Assembly: GCF_000018105.1 (NCBI RefSeq)
Contig: NC_009927.1
Coordinates: 120,001 to 152,000, forward strand
Direction: 5' to 3'
Origin: Acaryochloris marina MBIC11017
GTDB taxonomy: Bacteria; Cyanobacteriota; Cyanobacteriia; Thermosynechococcales; Thermosynechococcaceae
Length of the DNA stretch: 32,000 bases
In this document: positions 10,072 to 27,942 of the stretch, piece by piece
Position numbering within the stretch: position 1 is the stretch's first letter
Layout: the number at the start of each line of letters is the position of its first letter
Notes under the pieces: model-generated
Seen by the model: the letters and a program-made list of their open reading frames with translations, nothing else
Told to the model about the DNA's origin: nothing
Database searches by the model: none
Translations under genes and position numbers: made by a program

Positions 10072-10657
10072 GGCGCTTATCCTTCAGGGGACAGTCTGCA
10101 ATTTCGCACTCAGAAGGCTCCATGCGAATCGGCGGCTCAAACTCCGTGATGCCGTACCGCTCACGGATCACTTTAAGTACCTGGTTTAGGTAGTGACGGA
10201 CTTGAGTATTGGTCATACCCATACAGTGGATAGGCTCAATATCGGCTAACTTCTTGCTCCCTTGCCAGACACTAACGGCCAGAGCATGGAGATGGGCATC
10301 CTTGGGCTTCTCCTTGTAGAGATAGAGCAAAGCCACAAGAGGGGCTTGGACGGGAATCGAGAAGGTTTCAGTGGCTTCTATGGGCGTGGTTATGACCTTC
10401 CGCTGTGCATAGTTTCCTTTGCGCTTGGCATTGCTTTCCTTGCGGTGGCGGTAATGATTGCGCTTATTGTCGCAGGTATTGTCCTTCCAGCAGTCATCGC
10501 CTTGGGGTCCGTGAATACGCTTGGCTTCAGACCGGGAATAATCGATGCACGCTAAGCACTTGGGATTGATGGGTCGTGCCATTTCGGGGGCCACTCCATT
10601 GAGCGTCGGTGGTGAAAGCCCATAGGAGAAAGGCTTAAACCATCGCCAGGATACCAT
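10055..10657 (-). CDS. hypothetical basic, Cys-rich protein (possible zinc ribbon)
   Basis: ORF with KCLAC...C.KDNTC (CxxC...Cx6C) followed by a K/R/H-rich stretch. ATG 10582 (MARPINPK...) is a plausible alternative start. Confidence 0.5.
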   Translation of the reverse strand: MVSWRWFKPFSYGLSPPTLNGVAPEMARPINPKCLACIDYSRSEAKRIHGPQGDDCWKDNTCDNKRNHYRHRKESNAKRKGNYAQRKVITTPIEATETFSIPVQAPLVALLYLYKEKPKDAHLHALAVSVWQGSKKLADIEPIHCMGMTNTQVRHYLNQVLKVIRERYGITEFEPPIRMEPSECEIADCPLKDKRHVQTA

Positions 10658-10829
10658 ACGTTTTTTAGTCTAAAATTTAGTCTAATACAGATAAGGGGAG
10701 TTATTTGGAGTAGGAATAATCACAAAAATACCCCTGCTGTCAGTGGAAAGGGTTTGAATCGCAGGTTTGAGATTTTTGGGGAGCAACAGGGGTGCTGAAT
10801 TCCTGGTTATTCGTGTTGTCTTGCTTCAT

Positions 10830-12974
10830 TCACTCAGCAGGTTTGGGTAGGAACATGCGCTGCTTGATGGAATCCCATTGCTGAGCAGAGATTCCACTCG
10901 CTTGTTTACTGCAATCGATCATGAGCTGGCAGGTTGAGAAGTAGTTGGTGATGGCTTGCACATCATCTGTAGACAGATCCAATAATTCTGGAGAGATATC
11001 CAGTGATGAGCTGATTCCTTCGATTGAAACTGTTGATGAGTCAAATGATTTTTCTAGATATGAGATGAGGGTTTGAATATCAACATCTGTTATTAGTTTA
11101 TTATCCAGGGCAAATTTAGCGATGGCGATGGCGATGGCGCGGGCGCGGGCGCGGGCGCGGGCGATGGCGCTGGCGCGGGCGCTGGCGCGGGCGCTGGCGC
11201 GGTCGATGGCGCGGTCGAGGTCGAGGTCGAGGGCGCTGGCGCGGTCGAGGGCGCTGGCGATGGCGAGGGCGCGGGCGCTGGCGCGGTCGAGGGCGCGGGC
11301 GAGGTCGAGGGCGCGGGCGCTGGCGCGGTCGAGGTCGAGGGCGCGGTCGAGGGCGCGGTCGATGGCGCTGGCGATGGCGAGGACGAGGATTAGTATTAGA
11401 GTAAATACTCGTTTAACTTCACCAGAATAGTCACTGGATGCATGAGTTGTCTTAGCCCCTGCCCAAGCTAGCAATCTCTTTAACTTGGGATGTTCAGATA
11501 GCTCTTGAGTTTGTACTTCCAGTTTTTCCAAGAGTCCGATCGCAGCTTCACCCATCAACCCCGTAACTAGAAAAAAGACTTCTCTCCAGCGTTCACTTGA
11601 ACGGTGCAATTCAACTAGATCATCTAGTAGGTTCCATTTAACAATGTACTTTGCAGTTAAAAACTCCTGAAGCGTTAAGTGAGAGAAAGAATAAACATTA
11701 GTTGCTCTCTCAACGAAAATTCCTTGCTGAACTTCAATTGCTTCCAAGACTGCTGATGCATCAAGGTTCTTTGGAGCACCCAGCGAATCACCCAAAAAAT
11801 CAGCTATTGATTTCATCAACTGCTCTTCAGTGAAAAATAGTTGATTGTCCTCAAATCCCTGATAGGCAATTTTTGCCAACAATTGTTTCTCAAGGTCTGT
11901 GTGGAATCCCTCATAAATTTGACCTCGCCCAACCCGTTTTTCTGATGCCCACTCTTTTAGCAAAATGTTCAAGGCATCTTCATACAAAGTATGTCGGCTA
12001 CTGGGAACCGTTAGGGATTTGTTATAGACCATGCACAGAAACGTCAAGAGCAAAGGAGATTGAGCTAACTCCTTTGCTCCTTTATTCTCTGGTTTCTGCA
12101 ACAGTTCCCAACAGTGCTGAGCTGTCTGGCTCTGTTGGTCGAGTTCAGATGAGAACCAGTTTGTAATAAATTTCTCTATCTGCTCATCGTCAAATTCTGC
12201 GATCGCAACTGTAGTTACCCGCTTGAAATAGGTATGATAGGCGGCAATTCGACAAGAGGCTATAAACCGATTCTTGGAATATCGATCTACAAAGGCTTGA
12301 ATCTTCTGAATAACATTATCAAGATTTTCAGCAAGAACCTCATCCAGGCCGTCAAAGAGGATAAGGAGTCGCCCTTTTGCCAAAGCTTTTTTAGTAAAGC
12401 CATCTGGGTGTGGAAAGCCACAGTTTTCAAATTCAGCAGCGATACAGGTTTCCAGATCTAGATCGGGTGAGGTTAATAACTTTAATTCGAGGAAGACTGG
12501 AATTTGTTGATGCTTGTAGCTTCCTTGCTCTCCCTTAAGCGCTTCTAGTCCTACTTTCCTTAGAAAGGTAGACTTGCCAATTCCTGGATCTCCGAGAACA
12601 ATCAGCCGCTCACATTCGTTAGCAATATCAATACCGTTTCGCTTGGGACAGTTATGGTGTCTGAATCGACGGTCGCCCCGATTTCGATAGGCTTCTTCCA
12701 GGGCTTCACGAGAGTCATAACTTTTCATTGACTCCGTATCCAACATTCGGGCACCAGAATATATGGCATCTAACGATACGGGTTTAGACATTCCCAAAAC
12801 CTGGACTTGCCCATGTCGATCGCTGTAGTTTTGAAAGTATGCTTTTGTAGCATTAAAAAACAGTTGTCGAAATGAATCATCAATCTTGATCTCATCCCTC
12901 TCATCAAAGATTTTGATACCAAGGTCAAAGAGTGCCTTTATGAACGCTCCTGCAACTGCTGCCTCCAATGCCAC
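10830..12974 (-). CDS. NACHT-family STAND NTPase with a C-terminal dipeptide-repeat region
   Basis: Walker A LGDPGIGKSTFL, Walker B LLILFDGLDEV, and the typical pre-P-loop segment VQVLGMSKPVSLDAIY. GTG start at 12974. No recognisable effector domain at either end. Confidence 0.85.
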   Translation of the reverse strand: MALEAAVAGAFIKALFDLGIKIFDERDEIKIDDSFRQLFFNATKAYFQNYSDRHGQVQVLGMSKPVSLDAIYSGARMLDTESMKSYDSREALEEAYRNRGDRRFRHHNCPKRNGIDIANECERLIVLGDPGIGKSTFLRKVGLEALKGEQGSYKHQQIPVFLELKLLTSPDLDLETCIAAEFENCGFPHPDGFTKKALAKGRLLILFDGLDEVLAENLDNVIQKIQAFVDRYSKNRFIASCRIAAYHTYFKRVTTVAIAEFDDEQIEKFITNWFSSELDQQSQTAQHCWELLQKPENKGAKELAQSPLLLTFLCMVYNKSLTVPSSRHTLYEDALNILLKEWASEKRVGRGQIYEGFHTDLEKQLLAKIAYQGFEDNQLFFTEEQLMKSIADFLGDSLGAPKNLDASAVLEAIEVQQGIFVERATNVYSFSHLTLQEFLTAKYIVKWNLLDDLVELHRSSERWREVFFLVTGLMGEAAIGLLEKLEVQTQELSEHPKLKRLLAWAGAKTTHASSDYSGEVKRVFTLILILVLAIASAIDRALDRALDLDRASARALDLARALDRASARALAIASALDRASALDLDLDRAIDRASARASARASAIARARARARAIAIAIAKFALDNKLITDVDIQTLISYLEKSFDSSTVSIEGISSSLDISPELLDLSTDDVQAITNYFSTCQLMIDCSKQASGISAQQWDSIKQRMFLPKPAE
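11119..11388. repeat. 45 tandem hexanucleotide units, (G/T)CG(C/A)(G/T)G on the + strand, inside the NACHT ORF
   Basis: 270 nt of GCGCGG/GCGCTG/GCGATG/TCGAGG/GCGAGG units, far more GC-rich than the flanks. On the coding strand they give [A/D]-[R/L/S/I] dipeptides (ALDRALDRALDLDRASARALDLARALDRASARA...ARARARAIAIAIA). Confidence 0.95.
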
Positions 12975-13232
12975 TGTCCTTTAGTTCCCAAAGAATATTT
13001 GCTCCATTGTGATTATCCTATGGGTAAAACTTTGGCTCAGTTATTCATCAGTATTAATTCATAAAAGCTAAAAGCGAAGGATCTCTCAAGAACGATTTTT
13101 TGATAGCTTCCTAATTTCAGTCTTAGCTATAGCACTCCAGACTTCCAGCACCCACCCATTTATTTTGGAGTAGAATCCCCATAGCTAACCTCCCTACACA
13201 TCACACCATCCCAACCTCAGCAATCTTCCCCA

Positions 13233-15197
13233 ATGGCTATCCCTGAAGTAAATCTCATCGTACTGGCAGACCAGGCCGCCACCCCCATCGATGCTGCCCG
13301 GTCCCGGACCCAACCCGCAACAACCCCACTGGCCGATCTCCGGTGGATGCGAGTCGAAGAATTCCTAAGATCCCGCGAAATCCGACCCAACACCCACAAA
13401 GCCTATGAGCGAGACTTGAAGCAGCTCATGGACTGGACCCCAAAGGGATGGCATGAGATTACCTCCAGGGACTTGGATCGATACAAGACCTATCTCAAGA
13501 CTGAACCCAACCACCGGGGCAAGCTCCGCAAGTGTGCGACCATTAACCGGAGCTTGGCCGCATTGCAGAGCTTCTTCAAATGGCTGACGGTTCGGGACTA
13601 CATCACCAAAAACCCAGCTTTACTCTTAGAAAAGCTGAAGTCTGATCCATTGCTGCCCCAGGAATTCAGCCAGGACGAAGTGGATAATCTATATCAGGCC
13701 ATTTGCGATCGCGGGTTTCATTCCTTCCGAGATCGGGCATTGCTGCACCTGATTGATCATGGGTTGAGAGCATCAGAGATTCAGGGGTTGAATGTTGGGG
13801 ACTATGATGGTCAGCGTGTTCACATCAGAGAAGCCAAGGCTGATAGCGTTGGGTCTGTTCCACTTTTGAGCAAGGCCAGGAGAGCGTTTGACCAGTACAA
13901 GCAGTGGCGAGAACAACAGGGTGAAGTCCTTGAAGATGAGTCACCGTTGTTTGTATCCCACTCCAATAACAGCAAAGGACAACGGTTGCAATATTGGGGC
14001 ATCTACAAGATATTCAAGGCGATTGCTGATATTGCCGAGGTGGAGAATGCCCATCCTCACCGAGGACGGCATACCCTAGCGACTCGACTAGTGATGAAAG
14101 ACATGGACTCGATTCTGGCCCGGAAGGTTACCCGGCACAAATCAGAGCAGTCTTTTGTCCGTTATTCAGATCGGGGAATTGAGCTGAAGGCAGAGCAGCA
14201 ATTCTATGAGGTGCATGGGGAAGCGCCAGGGGGCGAGGATGGGATCGTTGAAGACCAGTTGGAAGGTATTGAGCTGAAGGCGGTCGTTGAGGAGCCTGCG
14301 AACTGGCCCAAGATTAAGGCGGTGGGTCTGCCCTTGAATACGGTCCAGGTGAGGCTGACCCTTGAGGTTTCAGGGAAGAAGAAGGGCAAGGTCAGGAAGG
14401 AGATCGAGGAGCGGGTCTTTAGTCCTTTTCAGATGGTCAAACCTAAGCCGAGGGGGAATGAGTATGAGCTGATGGTTGTGGTTGAGGGAGGCGATACGTT
14501 GTCTGCAATTACCGATCAGATGAAATGGGATATGGAGCTACTGGGGGAACTGGATGATTGCGAGGTGAAAGTGGCGTGGTTGGATCAGCAAGAATCGACT
14601 GGAGAGGTGACTCTAGAATCTCAGGAAGACGAGTCAGCTTTTGCCGAGTCTTCCGCAGGGCAACGGCCTACTTCCACCTCCAGCGTCTATCAAATGAAGA
14701 TCATGCTGCTGGGAGTACGGCCCCAAGTCTGGCGGCGCATTCAAGTCCCAGAGACGACGACGCTGGCCCAACTACATTCTGTATTGCAAGTCGTGATGGG
14801 GTGGGAAGGTTACCATCTGCACCAGTTCTCGGATAGCGAAGACGAAGCCATGACTTTAGCGGAGCTGATCGAAGATGATTTATTCTCATTCGGCTACCTA
14901 TATGACTTCGGGGATATGTGGCGACATGAAATCAAGGTGGAGAAGAGGTTAGAGAGTAAACCTGGAAAAAACTATCCCATTTGTCTGGCTGGAAAGCGGG
15001 CCTGTCCACCGGAAGACTGTGGTGGTGATTGGGGGTATGCTCGTCTGCTGAGGGTACTGAATAACCCCAGACATCCTGAGCATGAGGAGCGGTTGGAATG
15101 GGTTGGGAGTGATTTTGACCCGAAGGCGTTTGACCTGGAGGAGGTGAATCAAGCCTTGAAGGAGCTTGAGGTTGAAACAATGAGCTATTTTGATTGA
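13233..15197 (+). CDS. tyrosine recombinase (phage-integrase family) fused to a C-terminal pRiA4b ORF-3-like (MM3350-like) domain
   Basis: N-terminal SAM-like domain (NTHKAYERDLKQL). Catalytic residues are present: GLRASE (Arg), HPHRGRHTLAT (HxxR) and FVRYSD (Tyr). After an acidic linker comes VYQMKIMLLGVRPQVWRRIQVPETTTLAQLHSVLQVVMGWEGYHLHQF...YLYDFGDMWRHEIKVEK...CPPEDCGG, which I recognise as PF07929-type. Confidence 0.85.
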   Translation: MAIPEVNLIVLADQAATPIDAARSRTQPATTPLADLRWMRVEEFLRSREIRPNTHKAYERDLKQLMDWTPKGWHEITSRDLDRYKTYLKTEPNHRGKLRKCATINRSLAALQSFFKWLTVRDYITKNPALLLEKLKSDPLLPQEFSQDEVDNLYQAICDRGFHSFRDRALLHLIDHGLRASEIQGLNVGDYDGQRVHIREAKADSVGSVPLLSKARRAFDQYKQWREQQGEVLEDESPLFVSHSNNSKGQRLQYWGIYKIFKAIADIAEVENAHPHRGRHTLATRLVMKDMDSILARKVTRHKSEQSFVRYSDRGIELKAEQQFYEVHGEAPGGEDGIVEDQLEGIELKAVVEEPANWPKIKAVGLPLNTVQVRLTLEVSGKKKGKVRKEIEERVFSPFQMVKPKPRGNEYELMVVVEGGDTLSAITDQMKWDMELLGELDDCEVKVAWLDQQESTGEVTLESQEDESAFAESSAGQRPTSTSSVYQMKIMLLGVRPQVWRRIQVPETTTLAQLHSVLQVVMGWEGYHLHQFSDSEDEAMTLAELIEDDLFSFGYLYDFGDMWRHEIKVEKRLESKPGKNYPICLAGKRACPPEDCGGDWGYARLLRVLNNPRHPEHEERLEWVGSDFDPKAFDLEEVNQALKELEVETMSYFD

Positions 15198-15385
15198 GAA
15201 GGATCTTTACCCACTTGCTGACAGTCGGCTAAATAATCATCAATGACGTTATGAAAAGATTGCTTTAACTCATCCGCCGTCTGACCATCAAATGCAATGA
15301 CATCGCGAATCCCCAAGACGCGACCAAAGAAGATCTGATCATTAGCATCGAACTCAACCACAGATTCATAGCCCTTGTACTTCAT
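15185..15385 (-). pseudogene. HicB-family antitoxin, N-terminal domain only (C-terminal DNA-binding part missing)
   Basis: MKYKGYESVVEFDANDQIFFGRVLGIRDVIAFDGQTADELKQSFHNVIDDYLADCQQVGKDP matches the HicB N-domain. The expected ...YSGKF..RIP..LH RHH segment is absent. The ORF runs into the integrase 3' end with a 13-nt convergent overlap. Confidence 0.65.
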
Positions 15386-15718
15386 CTAACCCCCAGATAC
15401 CAATTTGCTACTAGCTAGGCGGTTGAGGCTAATCCCTTGTTCTGCTGCTTGGATAGCCAGTTGACGATGCTGCTCAGGTGGAATTCTCACCATAAATTTC
15501 CCACTGTATTGCTTTTTAGACAGAGGGGTAGGGATAGGCTCATCCTGTGCCACTAAATCCTCAATACAATCTTTGACCAATTCCACAATGCCAGCGAAAG
15601 CAGACTGTTGATCTTCATCCAGCCAGCTCAAACTTGGAAATTCGGCGCACAAGCCCACAAACTCCTCATCTTCTTGAGACCAGATGACCCGGTAGGTATA
15701 GTATTTGGCATCCATCAC
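15386..15718 (-). CDS. hicB: HicB-family antitoxin (N-domain plus RHH-like C-terminus)
   Basis: YTYRVIWSQEDEEFVGLCAEFPSLSWLDED...KKQYSGKFMVRIPPEQHRQLAIQAAEQGISLN. ATG 15713-15715 shares one base with the hicA TGA (15715-15717). The ORF-track start is the GTG one codon upstream. Confidence 0.85.
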   Translation of the reverse strand: MMDAKYYTYRVIWSQEDEEFVGLCAEFPSLSWLDEDQQSAFAGIVELVKDCIEDLVAQDEPIPTPLSKKQYSGKFMVRIPPEQHRQLAIQAAEQGISLNRLASSKLVSGG

Positions 15719-15960
15719 ATTGACTCCAGCTTTTGGATCGCGGCTAACACTTGTTTGACTTGGTAGGGTTTGCCCATCCCTTTCTTGGATTGGATATTGA
15801 CGAAAGGATCACCCTGCCAGGGAGTCTTGTAAACCCGATGGCTTCCAGAAGTCTGACGAGCTTCCCCGAAGTAGTGATCGCAAACCTTACACAAATCAGA
15901 GAACTTAATCCCAGCGGGATTATTCCCCATTTTGGCAACAATTTTGTCGATACTGGCCAT
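15715..15960 (-). CDS. hicA: HicA-family mRNA-interferase toxin
   Basis: 81 aa from the internal ATG 15960: MASIDKIVAKMGNNPAGIKFSDLCKVCDHYFGEARQTSGSHRVYKTPWQGDPFVNIQ..GKPYQVKQVLAAI (YcfA/HicA-like). The ORF-track extension up to 16227 looks non-coding. Confidence 0.8.
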   Translation of the reverse strand: MASIDKIVAKMGNNPAGIKFSDLCKVCDHYFGEARQTSGSHRVYKTPWQGDPFVNIQSKKGMGKPYQVKQVLAAIQKLESM

Positions 15961-15970
15961 GTGGTTAATA

Positions 15971-15992
15971 GTATCAATATCGATACTAGTAT
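15971..15992. promoter_or_regulatory. overlapping palindromes upstream of hicA (candidate TA operator)
   Basis: GTATCaATATcGATAC (imperfect 16-mer, 15971-15986) overlaps the perfect 10-mer ATACTAGTAT (15983-15992), 11-32 nt upstream of the hicA ATG. Confidence 0.25.
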
Positions 15993-16086
15993 AGAATACT
16001 CTTCGATATAAGACCAAACTGTTCGTTAGAGTTTCACTAGAGTCATAATGACTTGCTAAAATCCACGAATTTGCGTATATGGATAC

Positions 16087-16110
16087 GGAAATTGCCATTA
16101 TCGCAACCAA
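16087..16110 (+). repeat. copy A of a 24-nt dispersed direct motif (candidate recombination site)
   Basis: GGAAATTGCCATTATCGCAACCAA matches 23314-23337 at 20/24 positions in the same orientation. Confidence 0.7.
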
Positions 16111-16406
16111 ATCGAGAAATGAAGAATGAACGAAATACCTTTGGTTTGAATTTGGCCTGAAATCTTTGTGGGATTGTTCTTGAAATCGTTCATCTAAAAA
16201 CATAAAAACAGATGAAGGGTAGGGCAACAGTCTTTGGTCAACCCAAATGAATGATTAAGTACCCAGCAGTTATACAACAGCCTAAAAATATTGCGGAATA
16301 AGTAGAAATACTACTTTCCAAGGTTATCCATGCCATTATTTTATGCAAGGTGATTTTGGATTTAGCTTCAGCGCATTTAGAGGATTGGGGACTGTGATAA
16401 AAACTG

Positions 16407-17735
16407 TTGGAATGGATAGGTTTTATGGCACCAGATTTACGCCAATTCTTTCGCGCTTGCAATCCGGGTAAAACAATTCGCTTTGAAGACCCTGAAGAAC
16501 GAAACTATTACATCGACTTTTCATCGGTCCGAGGGGGAGAAGTCATTGAAGAACTGGGCCAAACCATTGCACTCATGGATCCAGATCCGACCTGCCAGCT
16601 TTTCTCGGGGCATATTGGCTGTGGTAAGTCCACTGAACTTCTGCGACTAAAAAAAGAGCTACAAGAAAAAGGCTTCCATGTCGTCTATTTCGAGTCCAGT
16701 GCAGATCTGGATATGGGTGATGTGGATGTGAGTGATATCTTGCTAGCCATTGCCCATCAAGTCAGTGAAAGCCTAGAAGCTGCCAAAATTTCCACTCAAT
16801 CGAGTTACTTTAATCGGCTGCTCAAGGAATGTGTGGATTTTTTAAATACCCCTGTGGAGTTGGGGATTGAAGCAGAACTGTCCTTGGGGATTGGCAAATT
16901 AACCGCAAAAACCAAAGAAAGCCCACAATTACGGAGCCAACTGCGCCAATATCTAGAACCTCGGACAGAAAGTTTGCTGAATGCTATTAACCGAGAACTG
17001 CTGCAACCTGCCCAGGAGGAGCTGAATAAGCAGGGGAAGCAGGGCTTAGTGGTGATTATCGACAATCTGGATCGGGTGGATAATCGACCGATAGCTTCGG
17101 GGCAAACCCAGGCGGAGTACTTATTTATCACTCGGGGAGAGCAGTTAGGGGGGTTACGATGCCATGTCGTCTATACCATTCCTCTGGTATTGATGTTCTC
17201 CAATGAGTTGCAAGCTCTGAAAAATCGGCTAGGCGGTGGGGCTAATCCGATGGTGTTGCCGATGGTTCCCATTCGATTGCGGGAGGGGAATGATTGTGAG
17301 GCGGGAATGGCTCTGTTGCGTCAAATGGTTTTAGCTCGGGCTTTTCCCCAGGCCACACCAGATGAACGTTTAGCTTCGGTGACAGAGGTGTTTGACTCAC
17401 CGGAGACATTAAATCAACTCTGTGTGGCGAGTGGTGGACATGTTCGTAATTTGCTGAGTCTGCTATTTACCTGTTTAAGAAAACGCAAGAGCTTGCCCAT
17501 TACCCAAGACAGTTTGCAGTTAGCGATTCAAGAAGCTAAGGATGATTTGACCGCTACTATCGATGCTGAAGAGTGGGAACTGCTCAAACAGGTCCATTCC
17601 TCGAAGAAAGTCACGGGAGAAGAGGAATGTCAGGCATTATTGCGGAGTCTATTTGTATTTGAATATCGCAACCATGCCGATGGTCGATGGTTTGATATTA
17701 ATCCAGTATTGGCAGGTGCTCGTGAATTGTCATGA
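16407..17735 (+). CDS. P-loop ATPase (AAA+/ORC-Cdc6-like or STAND-like, no repeat domain)
   Basis: Walker A GHIGCGKST (16608-16634) and Walker B LVVIIDNLDR (~17046-17075). The second ATG at 16425 (MAPDLRQFF...) may be the true start. The stop overlaps the next start as ATGA at 17732-17735. Confidence 0.8.
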   Translation: MEWIGFMAPDLRQFFRACNPGKTIRFEDPEERNYYIDFSSVRGGEVIEELGQTIALMDPDPTCQLFSGHIGCGKSTELLRLKKELQEKGFHVVYFESSADLDMGDVDVSDILLAIAHQVSESLEAAKISTQSSYFNRLLKECVDFLNTPVELGIEAELSLGIGKLTAKTKESPQLRSQLRQYLEPRTESLLNAINRELLQPAQEELNKQGKQGLVVIIDNLDRVDNRPIASGQTQAEYLFITRGEQLGGLRCHVVYTIPLVLMFSNELQALKNRLGGGANPMVLPMVPIRLREGNDCEAGMALLRQMVLARAFPQATPDERLASVTEVFDSPETLNQLCVASGGHVRNLLSLLFTCLRKRKSLPITQDSLQLAIQEAKDDLTATIDAEEWELLKQVHSSKKVTGEEECQALLRSLFVFEYRNHADGRWFDINPVLAGARELS

Positions 17736-20700
17736 CGGAGACTTCATTTACCGTAGGGACTGAGCATCTGGCTCAATTGGAAGAATTGGCCTGGACCATT
17801 GAGATGTCTGAGGGGCAGTTTACGCTGATTTTAGCGAACTGCAATTATGCTCAACTGCGAACGGCTTTAATCCAACGCTTGGCTGAGCTATGTTCTGTAG
17901 CGATCAAGCCTGTGCATTTGAATCCAGATGCAGTGACCTTGTACTCAGCTATCCAGCAGCAGCTTGGACAACAGGTTCCCCCGGCTTTGATGGTGACGGG
18001 GTTAGAATCGCTAGAAGCCTTAGAACAAGTTTTGACATCTGCGAATCAAGCCCGAGAGGAATTTCGCAAACGCCTACCCGTCCCGATGGTGCTGTGGCTG
18101 GATGATGATTTGCTGAAGCAGATGGTGCGTTTAGTTCCTGATCTAAAAAGTTGGGGGACTTCCTTTCGGTTTCAAGCTGAGCCTGTGGAATTGGTGCAGT
18201 TTCTACAAGACTGTAGCCAGCGCTTGTTTACAAAAATTCTCGATGTAGGGCAGTTTGTACCTAATTCTGAGGTATTGGGTAAACGGAATCGGCAAGAAAT
18301 TAGCTATGCAATACAAGCCTTAGAAACACCCGGGACCACTCTTAACCCAAAATTGCAAGCTACTGTGATCTTTGCTCAGGGCCGGAATGCCTATGCCAAG
18401 GGTGATTTGAAAAAGGCGCTTGATTTCTATCAGCATAGTTTGCAGGAGTGGCCGGATTCAGAACAACCCTCTGGAGGAATGCCTGCTAGGACAAACGATG
18501 AGTCTGGAAGTACCTCTGAAATAGAAAACTCACGACATAAGGGAATTGTACTGATTCATCAGGGCTGGTGTTATCAGGCAATGGCTCAACAGGATTCATC
18601 CCAAACAGCAGCATTTCTGGAACAAGCTAAGCAGTCCTTTGAGCAAGGATTGGATTGTTTAGGGGCATCGTCGGAGCTGGGGATTCTGTATCTGGGGCAA
18701 CTAGGAGAGGTTCTGCATCAGTTAGAGAATTGGGATGCGTTAGATCAACTGGCCTTAAACCTATATCAGAACACCACACCTGAAAAGCACCCTCTGCAAT
18801 ATATGGAAGCGTTGGTGTTGCGGGCACAGGTTTGCAACCATCGTCAAACCTGGGAGCCAGCTCTTGATTTGACCGAAGAAGCACTACAGATTTGGGAGGT
18901 GGGAAGTACTGAGATACAGGTGCTGGCCCAGCAGCAAATCTTGCGAATGCGTATGGGCCTACTCAGTGCCCAAGCTCAGCAAGCTCTGGGAAAGTCTCAA
19001 GCAGCTATTGACGATTTAGAGCAGACTATAGCTGCCACTGATGCAAGTGCAGATCCACATTTGTTTGTGGAGATTTTGGAGCAGCTAAGGCAGCTTTATT
19101 TTGATCAGAAAGACTATCAGAAAGCTTTTGAGACTAAGCAACTGAAAACGACGGTCAAACTCAAATTTCGATTACAGGCGTTTATTGGGGCGGGACAGTT
19201 GCAACCCCAGCTTGGGGACGAGGAAGGGATTGATGAATCCTTGGTGTTGTCGGGACGACAGCAAGATATTGAAGTGATTGTGAATGAACGGCTGAGCCAG
19301 GATCAATACAAGCTGGTGATATTGTATGGTCCTTCTGGCGTGGGCAAGAGTTCATTAGTCAAAGCAGGGCTGGTTCCAGTTTTGCAGCAGCGCGTGATTA
19401 GAGATCGGAAAACTTTGCCTGTGGTGGTGAATGTTTATAGCAATTGGGTTGCGGAGCTACAAGCAAAGCTAGAACAGGCTGCTTCTGTGCCACACACTAT
19501 GAAAACTGAGATTTCAGGTGTGGAGACCTCTGAAGATGTGAGCCAAGCATCCGATGTTGTCAAAGGTGAAACGGGCACTAGTGACAGCTTAGAGCAGATT
19601 AAGCAGCAACTTAAACACAATGTAGAGGCTCAACGATTAACTGTACTTGTTTTTGACCAGTTTGAGGAGTTCTTTTTTAACTGCCAAGAGCCTGGTTTAA
19701 GACGCCGATTCTATGAGTTTTTACAGGCTTGTTTGGACGGCAGAGCCATTCCCTTTGTGAAAGTGGTTTTATCGTTGCGGGAAGATTACTTTCACTATTT
19801 ACTTGAGTTTGGGCGGTTCACGACTAGACATGGGCTAGAGCAGGATGTACTCCGGCAAGATAATCGCTATTATTTGGGGAATTTTGATTTAGATTCAGCG
19901 CGGTTGGTCACAGAACGGCTGGCGAAACGAGCGCAATTTCATGTGCAATCGCAGGTGATTGAGCGGCTGATTGGTGATTTAGCGACGGAATTGGATCAGG
20001 TGCGTCCGATTGAATTGCAGGTGTCCGGCGCGCAACTTCAGACAGAAAATATTACAACCTTGCAGCAGTATGAACATCTTGGTGAGCAGCCCAAAAAGGT
20101 ATTAGCTAGTCGCTGGCTGGAACAGGTAGTAGAAGACTGTGGACCAGAGAACAACGAGACTGCTTGGAAGATGTTGGTTTCTTTGACTGATAGCAAGGGA
20201 ACACGACCGCTTCGAACTGAGCAAGAACTGTGGAATGCTGTCAGTACTTTTGCCTTGTTGGATACTGAAGATTCTAATCTTCAAGATTTACCTCAATCTA
20301 ACCCTGAAGATCTGACGCATTTTTCCTTGATTTTGAGAATATTGCAGGGATCTGGGTTAATTGTTCATTGGCCCCAAGAGCAAGATGATCGCTTTCAACT
20401 GGTTCATGATTATTTGGTTGAACCGATTCGACAACACTTTGACACTGACTTAGAGCAAAAACTTCGTAGTGAACGACAAGCTCGACAAAAAGCAGAAGCA
20501 GGGCGTGCAAAGCTCTTGAAGATCTCATTAGGCGGAGCTTTTATTGCCATTGCGGGTTTAATCGGTCTTTTATGGAGAGCAGAAAATTTGCGGTATAGAG
20601 CTGAGCGTCGAGAAGCTAACGCTGAAGTTTTAGCTCTAAGTCTTTCAAGTAAAAATTTGTTCGACTCCAACTATCAACTGAAATCCCTAACAAAAGCATT

Positions 20701-23224
20701 AATGGCTGGTCAAAATTTACGTGACTATGAAGAAAAACAAGAGAATCGACTAGAGAATCATATGTATGGTGTCGCAACACTTCGTGATTCCGTCTATAAC
20801 ATTCGACAGCAAAATAACCTCGAAGGCCATACCGATGCGGTCCTAGCCTTGGCCTATAGCCCGGATGGGAGCACCCTGGCCACGGCGAGTTCTGACAAGA
20901 CAGTGAAATTGTGGTCGAAGGAGGGGAGCCTGATCACTACCCTCGAAGGCCATACCGATTTGGTCCTAGCCTTGGCCTATAGCCCGGATGGGAGCACCCT
21001 GGCCACGGCGAGTTATGACAAGACAGTGAAATTGTGGTCGAAGGAGGGGAGCCTGATCACTACCCTCGAAGGCCATACCGATGCGGTCCTAGCCTTGGCC
21101 TATAGCCCGGATGGGAGCACCCTGGCCACGGCGAGTTCTGACAATACGGTGAAATTGTGGTCGAAGGAGGGGAGCCTGATCACTACCCTCGAAGGCCATA
21201 CCGATGCGGTCCTAGCCTTGGCCTATAGCCCGGATGGGAGCACCCTGGCCACGGCGAGTTCTGACAATACGGTGAAATTGTGGTCGAAGGAGGGGAGCCT
21301 GATCACTACCCTCGAAGGCCATACCGATTTGGTCCTAGCCTTGGCCTATAGCCCGGATGGGAGCACCCTGGCCACGGCGAGTTCTGACAATACGGTGAAA
21401 TTGTGGTCGAAGGAGGGGAGCCTGATCACCACCCTCGAAGGCCATACCGCTGCGGTCGGGGACTTGGCCTATAGCCCGGATGGGAGCACCCTGGCCACGG
21501 CGAGTGATGACAAGACAGTGAAATTGTGGTCGAAGGAGGGGAGCCTGATCACCACCCTCGAAGGCCATACCGCTGCGGTCGGGGACTTGGCCTATAGCCC
21601 GGATGGGAGCACCCTGGCCACGGCGAGTAGGGACAATACGGTGAAATTGTGGTCGAAGGAGGGGAGCCTGATCACCACCCTCGAAGGCCATACCGATTTG
21701 GTCCTAGCCTTGGCCTATAGCCCGGATGGGAGCACCCTGGCCACGGCGAGTTATGACAAGACGGTGAAATTGCGGTCGAAGGAGGGGAGCCTGATCACCA
21801 CCCTCGAAGGCCATACCGCTGCGGTCCTAGCCTTGGCCTATAGCCCGGATGGGAGCACCCTGGCCACGGCGAGTTCTGACAATACGGTGAAATTGTGGTC
21901 GAAGGAGGGGAGCCTGATCACCACCCTCGAAGGCCATACCGATTTGGTCAACACCTTGGCCTATAGCCCGGATGGGAGCACCCTGGCCACGGCGAGTAGG
22001 GACAATACGGTGAAATTGTGGTCGAAGGAGGGGAGCCTGATCACCACCCTCGAAGGCCATACCGATGCGATCTGGGCCTTGGCCTATAGCCCGGATGGGA
22101 GCACCCTGGCCACGGCGAGTGATGACAATACGGTGAAATTGTGGTCGAAGGAGGGGAGCCTGATCACCACCCTCGAAGGCCATACCGATGCGGTCGGGGA
22201 CTTGGCCTATAGCCCGGATGGGAGCACCCTGGCCACGGCGAGTTCTGACAATACGGTGAAATTGTGGTCGAAGGAGGGGAGCCTGATCACCACCCTCGAA
22301 GGCCATACCTATGCGATCTGGGACTTGGCCTATAGCCCGGATGGGAGCACCCTGGCCACGGCGAGTAGGGACAATACGGTGAAATTGTGGTCGAAGGAGG
22401 GGAGCCTAATCACCACCCTCGAAGGCCATACCGATGTGATCTGGGCCTTGGCCTATAGCCTGGATGGGAGCACCCTGGCCACGGCGAGTAGGGACAAGAC
22501 GGTGAAATTGTGGAACTTTGAGCTTGAAGATCTACTAAAGCGAGGCTGTCAATGGTTATCCGGCTATTTTATTCGACACCCACAGGAATTAGAATTACTA
22601 ACGGTTTGTCACAGTCCTGCGATTCTGAGTTTGGCTGCACTAGGCTTGGTCAGGCAAGGTCAAGTTCTTGCAGAAGCTGGAAATATGGAAAAAGCTCGAC
22701 AGAAGCTCCAAACTGCACTTAAATGGAGTCCCAAATTGGATCTTGATCCAGAAACTGAAATGAAAGATCGGGATGCTAAAAAGTTAGTGATTAAATGGGC
22801 TGCCCCTGCCAAAGCTGAAAAGGCTAAACAATTAGCTAGGCAAGGAAAAGTGAGTGACTCCATCCTCATTTTTCGAGAATTGCAGAGTTGGCAAGATACT
22901 GATAAGGCAGTAGAAATCTCAGCATCGTCTTGGAATTCACTTTGTTGGTTTGGGAGTTTGCATAGAAAAGCAAAATCGGTAATGTTTGCTTGTGAGAAAG
23001 CTGTCGCTTTTGACCCCAGTCATGGGGGGAGGCGCGATAGTAGAGGTTTAGCTAGAGCCTTAACCAATAACCCAAAAGGGGCAATAGAAGATTTTGAAGC
23101 GTATATCAAATTGTCTAATAGAGCTAGCGATCGTAAAAAGCAAAGGCAAAGTTGGATCGATGCCTTGAAAGCAGGGAAAGATCCTTTTACTGATGAAGTG
23201 CTGGATAGTCTCTTTGATGAATAA
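17732..23224 (+). CDS. 1830-aa multidomain STAND NTPase: degenerate P-loop-like N-module, TPR, nSTAND1-like NTPase, one TM helix, 14 WD40 repeats, TPR-like C-terminus
   Basis: N-module FTLILANCNYAQL / ALMVTGLES / VPMVLWLDDD has no Walker A. TPR-like AQGRNAYAKGDLKKALDFYQ. Walker A ILYGPSGVGKSSLVKAG (~19328), Walker B LTVLVFDQFEEFF (~19649). Hydrophobic helix ISLGGAFIAIAGLIGLLW (20522-20575). 14 x LEGHT....LAYSPDGSTLATAS.D.TVKLWSKEGSLITT. Confidence 0.9.
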   Translation: MTETSFTVGTEHLAQLEELAWTIEMSEGQFTLILANCNYAQLRTALIQRLAELCSVAIKPVHLNPDAVTLYSAIQQQLGQQVPPALMVTGLESLEALEQVLTSANQAREEFRKRLPVPMVLWLDDDLLKQMVRLVPDLKSWGTSFRFQAEPVELVQFLQDCSQRLFTKILDVGQFVPNSEVLGKRNRQEISYAIQALETPGTTLNPKLQATVIFAQGRNAYAKGDLKKALDFYQHSLQEWPDSEQPSGGMPARTNDESGSTSEIENSRHKGIVLIHQGWCYQAMAQQDSSQTAAFLEQAKQSFEQGLDCLGASSELGILYLGQLGEVLHQLENWDALDQLALNLYQNTTPEKHPLQYMEALVLRAQVCNHRQTWEPALDLTEEALQIWEVGSTEIQVLAQQQILRMRMGLLSAQAQQALGKSQAAIDDLEQTIAATDASADPHLFVEILEQLRQLYFDQKDYQKAFETKQLKTTVKLKFRLQAFIGAGQLQPQLGDEEGIDESLVLSGRQQDIEVIVNERLSQDQYKLVILYGPSGVGKSSLVKAGLVPVLQQRVIRDRKTLPVVVNVYSNWVAELQAKLEQAASVPHTMKTEISGVETSEDVSQASDVVKGETGTSDSLEQIKQQLKHNVEAQRLTVLVFDQFEEFFFNCQEPGLRRRFYEFLQACLDGRAIPFVKVVLSLREDYFHYLLEFGRFTTRHGLEQDVLRQDNRYYLGNFDLDSARLVTERLAKRAQFHVQSQVIERLIGDLATELDQVRPIELQVSGAQLQTENITTLQQYEHLGEQPKKVLASRWLEQVVEDCGPENNETAWKMLVSLTDSKGTRPLRTEQELWNAVSTFALLDTEDSNLQDLPQSNPEDLTHFSLILRILQGSGLIVHWPQEQDDRFQLVHDYLVEPIRQHFDTDLEQKLRSERQARQKAEAGRAKLLKISLGGAFIAIAGLIGLLWRAENLRYRAERREANAEVLALSLSSKNLFDSNYQLKSLTKALMAGQNLRDYEEKQENRLENHMYGVATLRDSVYNIRQQNNLEGHTDAVLALAYSPDGSTLATASSDKTVKLWSKEGSLITTLEGHTDLVLALAYSPDGSTLATASYDKTVKLWSKEGSLITTLEGHTDAVLALAYSPDGSTLATASSDNTVKLWSKEGSLITTLEGHTDAVLALAYSPDGSTLATASSDNTVKLWSKEGSLITTLEGHTDLVLALAYSPDGSTLATASSDNTVKLWSKEGSLITTLEGHTAAVGDLAYSPDGSTLATASDDKTVKLWSKEGSLITTLEGHTAAVGDLAYSPDGSTLATASRDNTVKLWSKEGSLITTLEGHTDLVLALAYSPDGSTLATASYDKTVKLRSKEGSLITTLEGHTAAVLALAYSPDGSTLATASSDNTVKLWSKEGSLITTLEGHTDLVNTLAYSPDGSTLATASRDNTVKLWSKEGSLITTLEGHTDAIWALAYSPDGSTLATASDDNTVKLWSKEGSLITTLEGHTDAVGDLAYSPDGSTLATASSDNTVKLWSKEGSLITTLEGHTYAIWDLAYSPDGSTLATASRDNTVKLWSKEGSLITTLEGHTDVIWALAYSLDGSTLATASRDKTVKLWNFELEDLLKRGCQWLSGYFIRHPQELELLTVCHSPAILSLAALGLVRQGQVLAEAGNMEKARQKLQTALKWSPKLDLDPETEMKDRDAKKLVIKWAAPAKAEKAKQLARQGKVSDSILIFRELQSWQDTDKAVEISASSWNSLCWFGSLHRKAKSVMFACEKAVAFDPSHGGRRDSRGLARALTNNPKGAIEDFEAYIKLSNRASDRKKQRQSWIDALKAGKDPFTDEVLDSLFDE
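20819..22513 (+). repeat. tandem array of 14 x 123-bp (41-codon) WD40-coding units
   Basis: Exact 123-nt period (units start at 20819, 20942, ...). A 42-nt block TTGGCCTATAGCCCGGATGGGAGCACCCTGGCCACGGCGAGT is identical in 13 of 14 units. Differences cluster at codons 6-10 and 25/27 of the unit. Confidence 0.95.
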
Positions 23225-23278
23225 TACCCTCACCACCCTTAGCAGACAAGAATCTATAGAACTAGTCTGACTGCTTTG

Positions 23279-23337
23279 TCTGAAAGGAATTCAGGGTGTG
23301 TATGATTGGTTCAGGAAACCGCCATTATCGTAACCAG
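23279..23337 (+). repeat. copy B of the dispersed direct motif (24-nt core 23314-23337 plus ~35 nt of weaker upstream similarity)
   Basis: The core GGAAACCGCCATTATCGTAACCAG matches copy C at 23/24. Upstream, CTGAAAGG..TTCA... aligns to 24196-24230 at roughly 65-70% identity without gaps. Confidence 0.8.
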
Positions 23338-23383
23338 TCGAAAGTAGGAGACAGTTCCCCCACTCTATTTCAACCTCAATATC

Positions 23384-23423
23384 AGTAGGACTATAGTAAC
23401 CTTTATGTTACTATAGTCCTACT
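23384..23423. promoter_or_regulatory. perfect 17-bp inverted repeat abutting the killer-gene start (candidate operator and promoter)
   Basis: AGTAGGACTATAGTAAC (23384-23400), a 6-nt spacer, then GTTACTATAGTCCTACT (23407-23423), with ATG at 23424. Each arm contains TATAGT. The right-arm copy ends 6 nt before the ATG. Confidence 0.5.
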
Positions 23424-23792
23424 ATGAAACTGCAAGAGTACATCAAAGAGGATGGCTCCAGTCCTTACCAAAAGTGGTTTAACCGATTAGATGCTATAGC
23501 AGCAGCAAAGGTTACGGTTGCCGTTTCTCGTCTGGAATTAGGCAACACCTCAAATGTGAAGTGGTTCGATGGAATTGGTGAATACCGGATCAATTGGGGG
23601 CCAGGATACCGTATCTATCTGATCCAAGATGGCAAGGAGTTGATTGTTTTATTGGGAGGAGGAACGAAAAAGGATCAACAGTCGGATATCACCAAGGCTA
23701 AGGAGCTTTCTCAAGAATATAAAAATCGGAAGAAGCAAGCGAATATAGATCCTCAAAAGAAGAAACAACGGCGAAAGAGAAAAAAGAAGTAA
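23424..23792 (+). CDS. addiction-module killer protein (RelE/ParE-superfamily toxin) with a Lys/Arg-rich tail
   Basis: YIKEDGSSPYQKWFNRLD...AAAKVTVAVSRLELGN.SNVKWFDGIGEYRINWGPGYRIYL.QDG.ELIVLLGGGTKK.Q..DI..AK fits the killer-protein family pattern. The C-terminal KNRKKQ...KKKQRRKRKKK extension is unusual. Confidence 0.8.
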   Translation: MKLQEYIKEDGSSPYQKWFNRLDAIAAAKVTVAVSRLELGNTSNVKWFDGIGEYRINWGPGYRIYLIQDGKELIVLLGGGTKKDQQSDITKAKELSQEYKNRKKQANIDPQKKKQRRKRKKK

Positions 23793-23797
23793 ATATC

Positions 23798-24121
23798 ATG
23801 GCATTGACGAGAGATTTCAAAGAGACTATCCACTCCCGAGTGCAGTCGGACCCTGAGTTTGCAACTGCCTTATTGGATGAAGCTGCATACCTCATGCTTA
23901 ATGGAGAGCCAGAAACAGCTCGATTAATATTGCGGGATTTAGTCAATGCGACGGTTGGCTTTGAACAACTTGCTGTCGAAGCGAATAAGCCCAGTAAGAG
24001 TCTTCATCGGATGCTATCTGCTAAAGGAAACCCAACGATGGATAGTTTGAACGCAATCTTTACTGCACTGCGTAAGAGGCTGAATGTGGATATTCAAGTT
24101 CATGCAGTTTCTTCTTCTTGA
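23798..24121 (+). CDS. addiction-module antidote protein (HTH antitoxin)
   Basis: Starts 5 nt after the toxin stop. Contains LLDEAAYLMLNGEPETARLILRDLVNATVGFEQLA...KSLHRMLS.KGNPTMDSL..IF.AL, as in the antidote proteins paired with killer proteins. Confidence 0.8.
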   Translation: MALTRDFKETIHSRVQSDPEFATALLDEAAYLMLNGEPETARLILRDLVNATVGFEQLAVEANKPSKSLHRMLSAKGNPTMDSLNAIFTALRKRLNVDIQVHAVSSS

Positions 24122-24195
24122 TGGATTCAGAACTGGAACTGAAGTGAGGGTTTCAGAAGACTGAAAATACAATATTAATTGGCTAAATCGCTTTA

Positions 24196-24254
24196 CCTGA
24201 AAGGGCTTCAAGACTTGTAAGCTTAGGGAAGGAAACAGCCATTATCGTAACCAG
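24196..24254 (+). repeat. copy C of the dispersed direct motif (core 24231-24254)
   Basis: GGAAACAGCCATTATCGTAACCAG. It ends 8 nt upstream of the recombinase ATG at 24263. Confidence 0.8.
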
Positions 24255-24262
24255 AAACCGAT

Positions 24263-25237
24263 ATGGAACTCGACGCAATACCCACCCCTCCAGCTTCGGC
24301 CCTAAAAATTCTTGAAAACGATGTTCTGAGTGATTTGCTCAGGGATAAACGATCTCCCAGCACCCGACGAGCCTACCGCAAAGACCTGACTGATTTTTTC
24401 CGCAAGATGTTTGCTGAAGATCCCACCCCTGAAATGGTGGGTCTATTCCTGGGGATGGATCGGCATGAGGCGCTGCAGCTAGTCGCCAGGTACAAGGGCA
24501 TTTTAATTGAGCTGGAGTTGGCCGAGGCCACGGTAAATCGGAGACTATCGGCCCTGAGAAGCTTGGTATCCTATGCCCGTCGAGCGGGTCAGTGCACCTG
24601 GGGCCTGGAGGATATTAAAGGTGAAAAAGTGATTGCCTATCGGGATACTTCAGGGGTGGATCTGGAGGATTTTCAGAAGATGTTGGCGATTCCAGATCGA
24701 GAAACGCAGCTAGGGAAGCGGGATTATGCGATTCTGGCCTTGCTCTGGGAAACAGCCTTGCGGCGAGGGGAGCTGAATCGTTGTAATGTCGGGGACTGGG
24801 AACCCGAGGAAAAAGCGCTGTGGATTCAGGGGAAGGGTCGAGGCACACAGAAAGAACGGGTGACGGTTGGTAACGTGAGTGCGATCGCACTGGAGGATTG
24901 GCTATCAACTCGGAAGCACTTGGAGGATGATGACCCGCTGATTGTGGCCCTGGATATCGTGCATTGGGGGCAGCGATTATCCACGACATCTATTTATAAG
25001 GTGGTCAGGAACATAGCCACGAAAGCGGGTATCAGCAAGGTGATGTCCCCACACCGGGTTAGGCATTCCTCGATCACTGCGGCACTAGATGCCACGGGTG
25101 GAAATGTCCGGGCCGTGCAGCAGCTCTCTCGCCATGCCAAGCCAGAAACAGTGATGCGCTATGACGATAATCGGAAGGATCTTCAGGGAGAGGTGACGGG
25201 GGTTTTATCTCGGTTATTGGGAGAGGCAGAGGATTGA
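24263..25237 (+). CDS. tyrosine site-specific recombinase (XerC/D-like integrase family)
   Basis: N-terminal SAM-like STRRAYRKDLTDFF. Catalytic LWETALRRGEL (Arg), HRVRHSSIT (HxxR) and SRHAKPETVMRYD (His, Tyr). Confidence 0.9.
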   Translation: MELDAIPTPPASALKILENDVLSDLLRDKRSPSTRRAYRKDLTDFFRKMFAEDPTPEMVGLFLGMDRHEALQLVARYKGILIELELAEATVNRRLSALRSLVSYARRAGQCTWGLEDIKGEKVIAYRDTSGVDLEDFQKMLAIPDRETQLGKRDYAILALLWETALRRGELNRCNVGDWEPEEKALWIQGKGRGTQKERVTVGNVSAIALEDWLSTRKHLEDDDPLIVALDIVHWGQRLSTTSIYKVVRNIATKAGISKVMSPHRVRHSSITAALDATGGNVRAVQQLSRHAKPETVMRYDDNRKDLQGEVTGVLSRLLGEAED

Positions 25238-25252
25238 GGTGAAGAGTAGTGA

Positions 25253-26704: not shown

Positions 26705-26818
26705 AGGCAAAACAGCTTGAAACCTCGCAAAAAGTATAGGTTATCAAGTGACAGTTTGAATCGATCACCGGTTATTCGTGAAGCTTTTGCTAATTGGGGT
26801 TATCGCAGTAATTTGGAC

Positions 26819-27253: not shown

Positions 27254-27258
27254 TGTAG

Positions 27259-27287: not shown

Positions 27288-27334
27288 CAGTTATCAAATT
27301 TTCTCTAGGATATTGGTTATTCCTTGATTGAGGC

Positions 27335-27937: not shown

Positions 27938-27942
27938 TCGAT

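Follow-up and report, generated by a model that had tools for sequence, protein, structure and literature searches.

We analysed a stretch of 32,000 nucleotides (here referred to as the window) from Acaryochloris marina MBIC11017 (contig NC_009927.1, positions 120,001 to 152,000) and focused on a WD40 repeat array within a gene for a STAND ATPase, here called the STAND-WD gene. The array consists of 14 units that are almost identical at the nucleotide level, and nearly all amino acid differences among them fall at seven of the 41 codons of the unit. These seven codons are placed, by means of a predicted structure, on the top binding face of WD40 propellers. We consider it probable that the array evolves by unequal recombination or gene conversion between units, together with diversifying selection at the binding-face codons.

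Near-identical units with seven variable codons

Tandem Repeats Finder detected a tandem array at 20818-22513 with a period of 123, 13.8 copies, 94% matches and no indels. Cut from position 20819, it gives 14 units of 41 codons, in frame inside the open reading frame (ORF) 17732-23224 on the plus strand. The unit length is exactly 123 nt across the whole array, and unit 14 is cut short, departing from the repeat at 22513 after its codon 32. For the window array, unit number and unit order are given as assembled.

The residues found among the 14 units are D/A/Y at codon 6, A/L/V at codon 7, V/I at codon 8, L/G/N/W at codon 9 (codons CTA, GGG, TGG and AAC), A/D/T at codon 10, S/Y/D/R at codon 25 (codons TCT, TAT, GAT and AGG) and K/N at codon 27. 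At codons 9 and 25 there are alleles that differ from each other at all three bases. Codons 6-10 make up variable block 1, which recurs each 123 nt at offset +15 to +29 through unit 14, and codons 25-27 make up variable block 2, which recurs in every unit at offset +72 to +80 (Table 1). Synonymous polymorphisms are present at three codons only, namely ACA/ACG at codon 28, CTG/CTA at codon 38 and ACT/ACC at codon 40. Moreover, two amino acid changes occur in one unit each: W32R is confined to unit 8 and P15L to unit 14. The original prediction had described the same array: its 14 near-identical units, its residue list for codons 6-10, 25 and 27 (reproduced exactly by our unit table), its few synonymous differences and its two odd units were all recovered, and the single CTG/CTA difference could be placed at codon 38.

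Nei-Gojobori estimates and polymorphic-site counts were made on the 13 complete units, with the seven variable codons as one set and the other 34 codons as the scaffold. Polymorphic nucleotides account for 14/21 positions in the variable codons and 5/102 in the scaffold (Fisher P = 1e-9). In the variable codons the non-synonymous divergence (dN) is 0.48 and the synonymous divergence (dS) 0.16, compared with a dN of 0.002 and a dS of 0.042 in the scaffold. We took the ratio of variable-codon dN to scaffold dS, about 12, as the informative contrast, and it is to be read as a descriptive value, since recombining paralogous units are compared with no formal site test. At least 20 non-synonymous changes are required at the variable codons, while 1.9 are expected from the scaffold synonymous rate (Poisson P = 3e-14). 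The dN/dS of the scaffold itself is about 0.05, which indicates that the blade frame is under purifying selection and that the gene is not decaying. Per-codon entropy is highest at codon 25 (1.84) and codon 9 (1.72), with codons 7 and 10 tied in third place (1.20). A per-codon dN/dS analysis had been proposed along with the original prediction as a check for evenly spread variation, and the variation turned out to be concentrated at the seven codons.

The four-gamete test was failed by 42/91 informative site pairs in the window array. This means that the variable blocks were recombined among units, or that mutation was recurrent, and it agrees with the repeat shuffling that had been predicted.

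Position of the variable codons on the propellers

Wu et al. (2012) deduced the top-face hotspots of WD40 proteins from the sequence: R1 and R2 are flanked by two bulky residues where strand a begins, R1-2 is two residues ahead of R1, and D-1 is ahead of the tetrad Asp (PMC3419727). When this fingerprint rule is applied to the V8-x9-x10-L11 stretch of the unit, codon 9 corresponds to R1 and codon 7 to R1-2, while codon 25 corresponds to D-1. We then used the AlphaFold model of residues 1000-1830, whose predicted local distance difference test (pLDDT) score is >90 over the blades. On this model DSSP assigned strand a to codons 8-13, strand b to codons 19-24, strand c to codons 28-33 and strand d from codon 38 through codon 2 of the following unit. 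The d-a loop therefore holds codons 6 and 7, the start of strand a codons 8-10, and the b-c turn codons 25 and 27. In WD40 propellers the top face is made up of the d-a and b-c loops (PMC3419727), and the a-b and c-d loops of the bottom face are invariant except for the P15L singleton. In the model, all seven variable codons are on the top binding face, where the placement is made by loop assignment and not by solvent exposure. The same face had been named in the original prediction, and both the hotspots R1-2, R1 and D-1 and the modelled loops point to it.

The whole array was aligned without gaps to PDB 2YMU, the 14-blade WRAP of Npun_R6612 from Nostoc punctiforme PCC 73102 (E 4e-210). Foldseek also ranked 2ymu_A first, and Apaf-1 was among the sequence and fold matches. 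The 7-bladed designed WRAP-T was superposed by Foldseek onto one half of the array with a template modelling (TM) score of 0.98 and a root mean square deviation (rmsd) of 0.9 A. The confidence of the model dips at its residues 310-313, close to the boundary of units 7 and 8, which fits two 7-bladed propellers. On the basis of the model, the 14 blades are predicted to form two seven-bladed WD40 propellers. The Pfam profile PF00400 matched 14 stretches with 560 bits (cut-off 27). The GH and WD dipeptides and the tetrad candidates H4, D26 and W32 are found in all units, except for the change of W32 to R in unit 8. With four strands per unit by DSSP, the array has the WD40 propeller fold, the Ser/Thr partner of the tetrad being unassigned.

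Orthologous and related arrays

By searching plasmids we found two orthologues, one on pREC1 of A. marina MBIC10699 and the other on a plasmid of Acaryochloris sp. 'Moss Beach'. The flanking gene sequence is 91% identical to the window in pREC1 (dS 0.28-0.36) and 72% identical in Moss Beach (dS ~1.3). The arrays contain 14 units in the window, 15 in pREC1 and 16 in Moss Beach, and the unit orders differ, so the comparison of repeat number and order between strains that had been suggested with the original prediction reveals differences in both.

The Moss Beach array (L001 13103-15042) has 95% matches among its 16 units, and its gene is split by a 1-nt deletion in a G4 run (L001 13718-13839). 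According to the pairwise difference matrix, its units 1, 3, 10 and 12 are identical, as are units 11 and 13 and units 5 and 6, which indicates recent one-unit and two-unit duplications. The pREC1 array (L002 16434-18138) has 81% matches among its 15 units, in-frame deletions and >40 variable scaffold columns. As judged from the repeats themselves, the pREC1 array is degenerate, whereas the window and Moss Beach arrays are homogenised. At five scaffold sites the window and Moss Beach arrays are fixed for different bases, while each array on its own hardly varies, and such array-specific fixed substitutions indicate homogenisation within arrays. These five differences, the uniformity of each array and the identical duplicate units in both speak for the concerted evolution that had been predicted.

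In the window, units 3 and 4 appear to be the latest duplication. In the window array, adjacent units resemble each other slightly more than units lying far apart (r 0.29, P 0.02), and there is no such effect in Moss Beach. A simple tandem-duplication gradient was therefore rejected as a description of the arrays.

We further compared the alleles of the variable codons. Alleles that differ at three bases are common to the window and pREC1, both at codon 25 (AGG and TCT) and at codon 9 (CTA and AAC). At codon 9, moreover, Moss Beach has TGG in common with the window and AGA in common with pREC1. This sharing argues that part of the allelic diversity is older than the present scaffold and outlived homogenisation, although convergence under selection is also possible. 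The recurrence of such alleles in orthologous arrays, together with the roughly 12-fold contrast given above, lends support to the part of the original prediction that concerned diversifying selection.

Three further homogenised arrays, in a Nostoc relative, in a relative from ENA and in an NB-ARC-WD gene, vary at matching positions. The NB-ARC-WD array is unrelated, has 42-codon units and is located on the Moss Beach plasmid (L001 1436-4582; array 2797-4426) between CHAT and CHAT-TIR genes; its variable positions are 6, 7, 9, 25 and 27. The contig of the Nostoc relative (L003) ends inside the array, and the ENA relative (L004) has a 1-nt deletion in the unit starting at gene offset 3642. The interrupted arrays of the relatives may represent real turnover, or they may be sequencing or assembly errors.

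The STAND-WD gene and its partner

The STAND-WD protein contains, in this order, an alpha/beta domain, TPR, an nSTAND1 NTPase domain, a predicted membrane helix, the 14 WD40 blades (residues 1030-1594) and a C-terminal helical/TPR domain (Table 1). In the N-terminal module, residues ~28-150 form a five-stranded alpha/beta domain according to AlphaFold and DSSP, and residues ~150-480 form a TPR-like superhelix. Foldseek matched the N-terminal model to TPR proteins only (LGN, Rap and OGT), with the TPR part dominating, and gave no family for the alpha/beta domain. The NACHT profile scored 18.6 bits on the STAND protein, which is under its cut-off.

The predicted helix ISLGGAFIAIAGLIGLLW has a Kyte-Doolittle 19-residue mean of 2.05, is rich in small residues and has a net positive flank on its N-side. 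An equivalent hydrophobic segment is present in 14 homologues and absent from P0016, P0019 and P0021. If read literally, the helix would locate the blades on the non-cytoplasmic side. A second hydrophobic stretch at aa 1622 was set aside as a membrane helix, being not hydrophobic in the Moss Beach orthologue.

Table 1. Coordinates of the WD40 array, the STAND-WD gene and neighbouring features in the window.
Feature	Position	Strand	Description	Evidence
WD40 array	20819..22513	+	14 units of 123 nt; units 1-13 complete	Tandem Repeats Finder, unit table, PF00400, 2YMU alignment, model, Foldseek
Variable block 1, unit 1 (codons 6-10)	20834..20848	+	d-a loop and start of strand a; hotspots R1-2 (codon 7) and R1 (codon 9)	
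Variable block 2, unit 1 (codons 25-27)	20891..20899	+	variable x, invariant D, variable K/N; b-c turn; D-1 (codon 25)	
Units 3 and 4	21065..21310	+	identical across 123 nt	pairwise difference matrix
Singleton W32R, unit 8	21773..21775	+	TGG>CGG	unit table
Singleton P15L, unit 14 codon 15	22460..22462	+	CCG>CTG; a-b loop, bottom face	unit table, model
STAND-WD gene	17732..23224	+	1830 aa	ORF list, translation, Pfam, models
N-terminal module	17732..19171	+		AlphaFold (mean pLDDT 84.6), DSSP, Foldseek, weak Pfam TPR_12
nSTAND1 NTPase	19250..20230	+	residues 507-833	PF20703, E 5.6e-32, 112.2 bits vs cut-off 27.1
Walker A GPSGVGKSS	19328-19354	+	in nSTAND1 domain	motif
Walker B-like LVFDQFEE	within 19637-19669	+	in nSTAND1 domain	motif
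Predicted single membrane helix ISLGGAFIAIAGLIGLLW	20522..20575	+	aa 931-948, between NTPase and blades	hydropathy only
C-terminal helical domain with TPR motifs	22514..23221	+	residues 1595-1830	Pfam TPR_9 and TPR_2; model helical, low confidence
Upstream KAP-like/STAND-like P-loop NTPase gene	16425..17735	+	~436 aa	Pfam, pREC1 orthologue annotation
Divergent island	10500..24200		~14 kb; 75-97% identical to pREC1	BLAST, 500-nt identity profile, pREC1 annotation, Pfam

The stop of the upstream KAP-like gene overlaps the start of the STAND-WD gene by 4 nt (ATGA). In Pfam, its protein matched KAP_NTPase with 26.2 bits (cut-off 20) as well as NPHP3_N and AAA_22 above their cut-offs, and its pREC1 orthologue is annotated as a KAP family NTPase. 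A gene of ~440 aa is located at the equivalent position in Moss Beach, MBIC10699 and the Nostoc and ENA relatives. Since the partner gene is kept in relatives, the two-gene module is probably the unit of function, and the two overlapping genes are taken to be co-transcribed. Hydropathy analysis found no hydrophobic segment in the KAP-like protein, and Pfam and PADLOC profiles detected no TIR or caspase domain in it. PADLOC matched this partner to PDC-S20 at 1e-6, with no meaningful assignment to a defence family.

By analogy, and in part by inference, we regard the array as the ligand-sensing end of an NLR-like (NOD-like receptor) STAND ATPase of the nSTAND1 clade with WRAP-type propellers. 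According to the STAND receptor model derived from Apaf-1 and others (PMC7159879), the top faces of both propellers would bind a ligand, and ligand binding would permit the STAND module to oligomerise in an NTP-dependent manner, as Apaf-1 does. Oligomerisation would in turn activate an effector, for which the N-terminal alpha/beta domain, the KAP-like partner and a membrane effect are candidates. The biological role would then be defence or non-self recognition, a reading to which we give about even odds.

The plasmid island around the gene

Comparison with pREC1 places the STAND-WD gene on a conjugative Acaryochloris plasmid, in an island that by sequence varies between strains. A common origin has been reported for pREC1 and pREB2, a plasmid of the type strain MBIC11017 (PMC9324425), and the window probably derives from a plasmid of this kind. 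The backbone is ~100% identical to pREC1 at 4370-10500 and 24500-30000. Besides the KAP-like and STAND-WD genes, the island between them contains a NACHT gene (10830-12974, minus strand), HicAB, an integrase-PRiA4 fusion and a toxin-antitoxin-like pair. Between the window and pREC1, the KAP-like gene has a dS of 0.36 but a dN/dS of 0.025, which indicates that the island is an old divergent haplotype acquired via recombination and not a hypermutated copy. The STAND-WD gene itself is a mosaic relative to pREC1: residues 681-720, 921-960 and 1001-1029 are much more diverged, and over residues 887-960 the Moss Beach allele is the closer match. A plasmid of A. marina S15 (L005 6933-8252) has the HicBA-regulator-integrase neighbourhood without the KAP-like and STAND-WD module, which shows that the module is present or absent between strains.

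Several other features were observed in the window. A 65-nt direct repeat, 77% identical, at 23273-23337 and 24190-24254 brackets the two-gene toxin-antitoxin-like cassette, which consists of a Gp49/HigB-like gene (23424-23792) and a gene at 23798-24121 with no Pfam match (its counterpart in S15 carries the annotation of a transcriptional regulator). pREC1 lacks the cassette and seems to retain one copy of the repeat; the site of the cassette adjoins a tyrosine recombinase gene (24263-25237). The NACHT gene contains a G+C-rich coding repeat at 11119-11388 with periods of 6, 12 and 42 nt, in which the 12-nt unit is present in 22.5 copies in the window and ~17 in pREC1. Outside the island, metH (5503-9213, minus strand) is identical to pREC1 at 3641/3642 positions, and the one difference creates an in-frame stop that gives the ORFs 5503-7473 and 7531-9213. 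Finally, a 300-nt direct repeat (370-669 and 2309-2608, 96% identical, 1.9 kb apart) overlaps a peptidase gene region.

G+C content and divergence of the scaffold

The scaffold consensus differs between the window and Moss Beach at 5/102 nt, i.e. at 4 of ~25 synonymous sites, whereas 62% of synonymous sites differ in the flanks of the STAND-WD gene (binomial P = 3e-6). The synonymous divergence of the scaffold is ~7-fold below that of the flanks, and the unique sequence adjoining the array is ~74% identical. We also calculated the G+C content at third codon positions (GC3) for each array and the flanks of its own gene. It is 0.77 in the window array (flanks 0.43 and 0.33), 0.71 in Moss Beach (0.45 and 0.32), 0.62 in pREC1 (0.42 and 0.30), 0.76 in the NB-ARC-WD gene (0.49 and 0.53), 0.60 in the Nostoc relative (flanks 0.37) and 0.55 in the ENA relative (flanks 0.39). 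All six arrays exceed their flanks, by 0.16-0.44. The changes in the degenerate pREC1 array are mostly from GC to AT (29 vs 7). The GC3 excess and the slow divergence of the scaffold in these sequences would both follow from GC-biased gene conversion.

Weighing of the explanations

In the mechanism that we consider probable, unequal crossing-over and/or gene conversion among units would keep the blades near-identical and yield new combinations of blades, and selection would retain diversity at R1-2, R1, R2, D-1 and the neighbouring residues. The variable residues would set the binding specificity of each propeller, and selection would favour new or diverse specificities.

Several points weigh against this mechanism or against the receptor role built on it. 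First, besides the descriptive nature of the dN/dS contrast, the alleles of the variable codons may be old rather than newly selected, and the homogeneity could result from one recent re-amplification, which is indistinguishable from continuing conversion. Second, the original prediction had suggested a search for paralogous arrays that could act as donors, and here it found no support. Two consensus units searched against 72,556 PLSDB plasmids recovered nothing but the orthologous arrays of pREC1 and Moss Beach and a distant caspase-WD gene of Nostoc, so that donor arrays were found on no PLSDB plasmid (the source chromosome being outside this search), and exact-word scans for the units in genome contigs (42-mer and 26-mer) and in metagenome contigs gave no paralogous arrays or further strains. 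Third, W32R in unit 8 may damage one blade. Fourth, the predicted membrane helix ahead of the blades does not fit a simple cytosolic-sensor model. Fifth, the PADLOC models, including those of Avs and bNACHT, matched the STAND protein at the P-loop level only (E 1e-3 or weaker).

With regard to function, the protein could instead be a signalling or scaffolding protein unrelated to conflict, whose variable face docks several cellular partners. WD40 propellers are general scaffolds, TPRs are present at both the N- and C-termini, no defence model of PADLOC matches, and Hu et al. (2017) suggested adaptation to different partners for such repeats (PMC5587647). The presence or absence of the module between strains points the other way, as does its location in a hyper-divergent island near a NACHT gene, toxin-antitoxin pairs and integrases; moreover, relatives have frameshifted arrays, and a rapid turnover of blades is unexpected for housekeeping partners. 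We regard this explanation as unlikely, but deserving of consideration. To a similar degree we doubt two further readings. In one, the protein would be a membrane-spanning STAND receptor with hypervariable propellers facing the periplasm or the thylakoid lumen; in the other, the array would be homogenised by GC-biased gene conversion. If the blades were outside the cytoplasm, they could sense external or cell-contact cues and not intracellular phage proteins; if conversion were GC-biased, a conversion bias would act besides selection in shaping immune-like sensors in bacteria.

With regard to the evolution of the array, a rival account is that the blades were amplified recently from one blade and then drifted neutrally, so that the surface sites would vary simply as unconstrained ones, with no selection for diversity. 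Npun_R6612, with 10 point mutations and no synonymous changes, has been interpreted in this way (PMC9218822), and both the identity of units 3 and 4 and the low scaffold dS would be expected from it. Neutral sites, however, cannot outpace synonymous ones, as the variable codons do in dN and in the number of changes they require, and drift accounts poorly for alleles at codons 9 and 25 that differ at three bases and in several cases recur in orthologous arrays. We therefore hold neutral drift to be improbable. An assembly artefact has an equally small chance in our view. In that case the number, order or composition of the units would be wrong because short reads did not resolve 123-nt units that are ~95% identical. 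Comparable fungal arrays were mis-assembled from Illumina data (PMC12222747), the contig of the relative P0009 ends inside its array, and an exact look-up of the 1830-aa protein returned no record elsewhere. On the other hand, the ORF is intact across 1830 codons with units of exactly 123 nt, orthologous arrays of 15 and 16 units are found in two complete plasmid sequences, one of which was obtained from Nanopore and short reads, and the per-codon pattern is independent of the unit order. Targeted mutagenesis of the variable codons by a diversity-generating retroelement or the like, although known to diversify nSTAND1 and NACHT sensor domains in other multicellular bacteria (PMC10907252), is hardly credible here and was rejected, because no reverse transcriptase was found among the scanned ORFs and no copy of the unit as template outside the array, because the variation extends to every codon position and several units have the same alleles, unlike in adenine-specific rewriting of positions 1 and 2, and because C-type lectin folds, rather than WD40, are the targets known so far.

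Comparison with known systems

The window array belongs to a class that has already been described in cyanobacteria and fungi, of which the original prediction had named the fungal members only. Hu et al. (2017) reported highly repetitive WD40 repeats that are conserved save at hotspot sites and are enriched in cyanobacteria (PMC5587647), a description that the window array matches exactly. Their survey was made at the protein level, without nucleotide dN/dS, comparison of orthologous arrays or genomic context. Pereira and Lupas described WRAP propellers of STAND ATPases from cyanobacteria, whose genes are coupled to partner genes, and ascribed frameshifted relatives to rapid turnover in innate immunity (PMC9218822). 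Among these, Npun_R6612 resembles the window array in its 41-residue units, 14 blades, >90% internal identity and a gapless alignment over the array at 54% identity. It also has the array C-terminal to the STAND ATPase, is coupled to a second P-loop NTPase gene and has frameshifted relatives (PMC9218822). However, it carries only its few point mutations, none of them synonymous, whereas in the window array seven codons of each unit have multiple alleles and three further codons vary synonymously. Moreover, the partner of Npun_R6612 has a TIR domain (PMC9218822), whereas that in the window is a KAP-like NTPase without a recognisable effector, TIR or caspase. In the window protein, a membrane helix is predicted as well, and the C-terminal domain contains TPR motifs.

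The fungal HNWD family shows concerted evolution with four hypervariable surface codons (PMC12222747, PMC4986451), and the parallel with HET-E/HNWD repeats in the original prediction is correctly stated according to these papers. HET-E and HET-D of Podospora anserina share with the window array near-identical WD repeats with few hypervariable surface codons (PMC12222747, PMC4986451), as well as repeat-number polymorphism, concerted evolution and a double propeller, all of which were observed in the window array or its orthologues. They differ in several respects. The fungal proteins have a NACHT domain and a HET effector, in contrast to the nSTAND1 domain and the unassigned alpha/beta and TPR N-terminus found here. 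The host is a fungus, whereas the present gene is bacterial and plasmid-borne. Repeat-induced point mutation is inapplicable here. Exchange between paralogues, known in the fungal family, was not detected here among the 72,556 plasmids. Finally, fungal allorecognition of HET-C was shown by experiment, whereas for the window array a role is predicted. Apaf-1 and related STAND receptors likewise have a P-loop STAND NTPase followed by two WD40 propellers, but the blades of Apaf-1 are diverged and recognise one conserved ligand, and the window protein is without a CARD or a known effector.

For bacteria, a 2020 preprint went no further than to say that a regime of rapid diversification 'might similarly be' acting on NLR repeats of high conservation. 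The new element here is the comparison of three arrays, which gives nucleotide-level support for such a regime in a bacterium. The three arrays on related plasmids show fixed array-specific changes, duplicate units, 14, 15 or 16 blades and shared old alleles, and one of them is degenerate. The overall picture of the class is unchanged by this case, which is a useful worked example, and as a plasmid-borne gene in a culturable host it is a tractable system. If confirmed, the GC3 excess, the slow synonymous divergence of the scaffold and the membrane helix ahead of the sensor would matter more.

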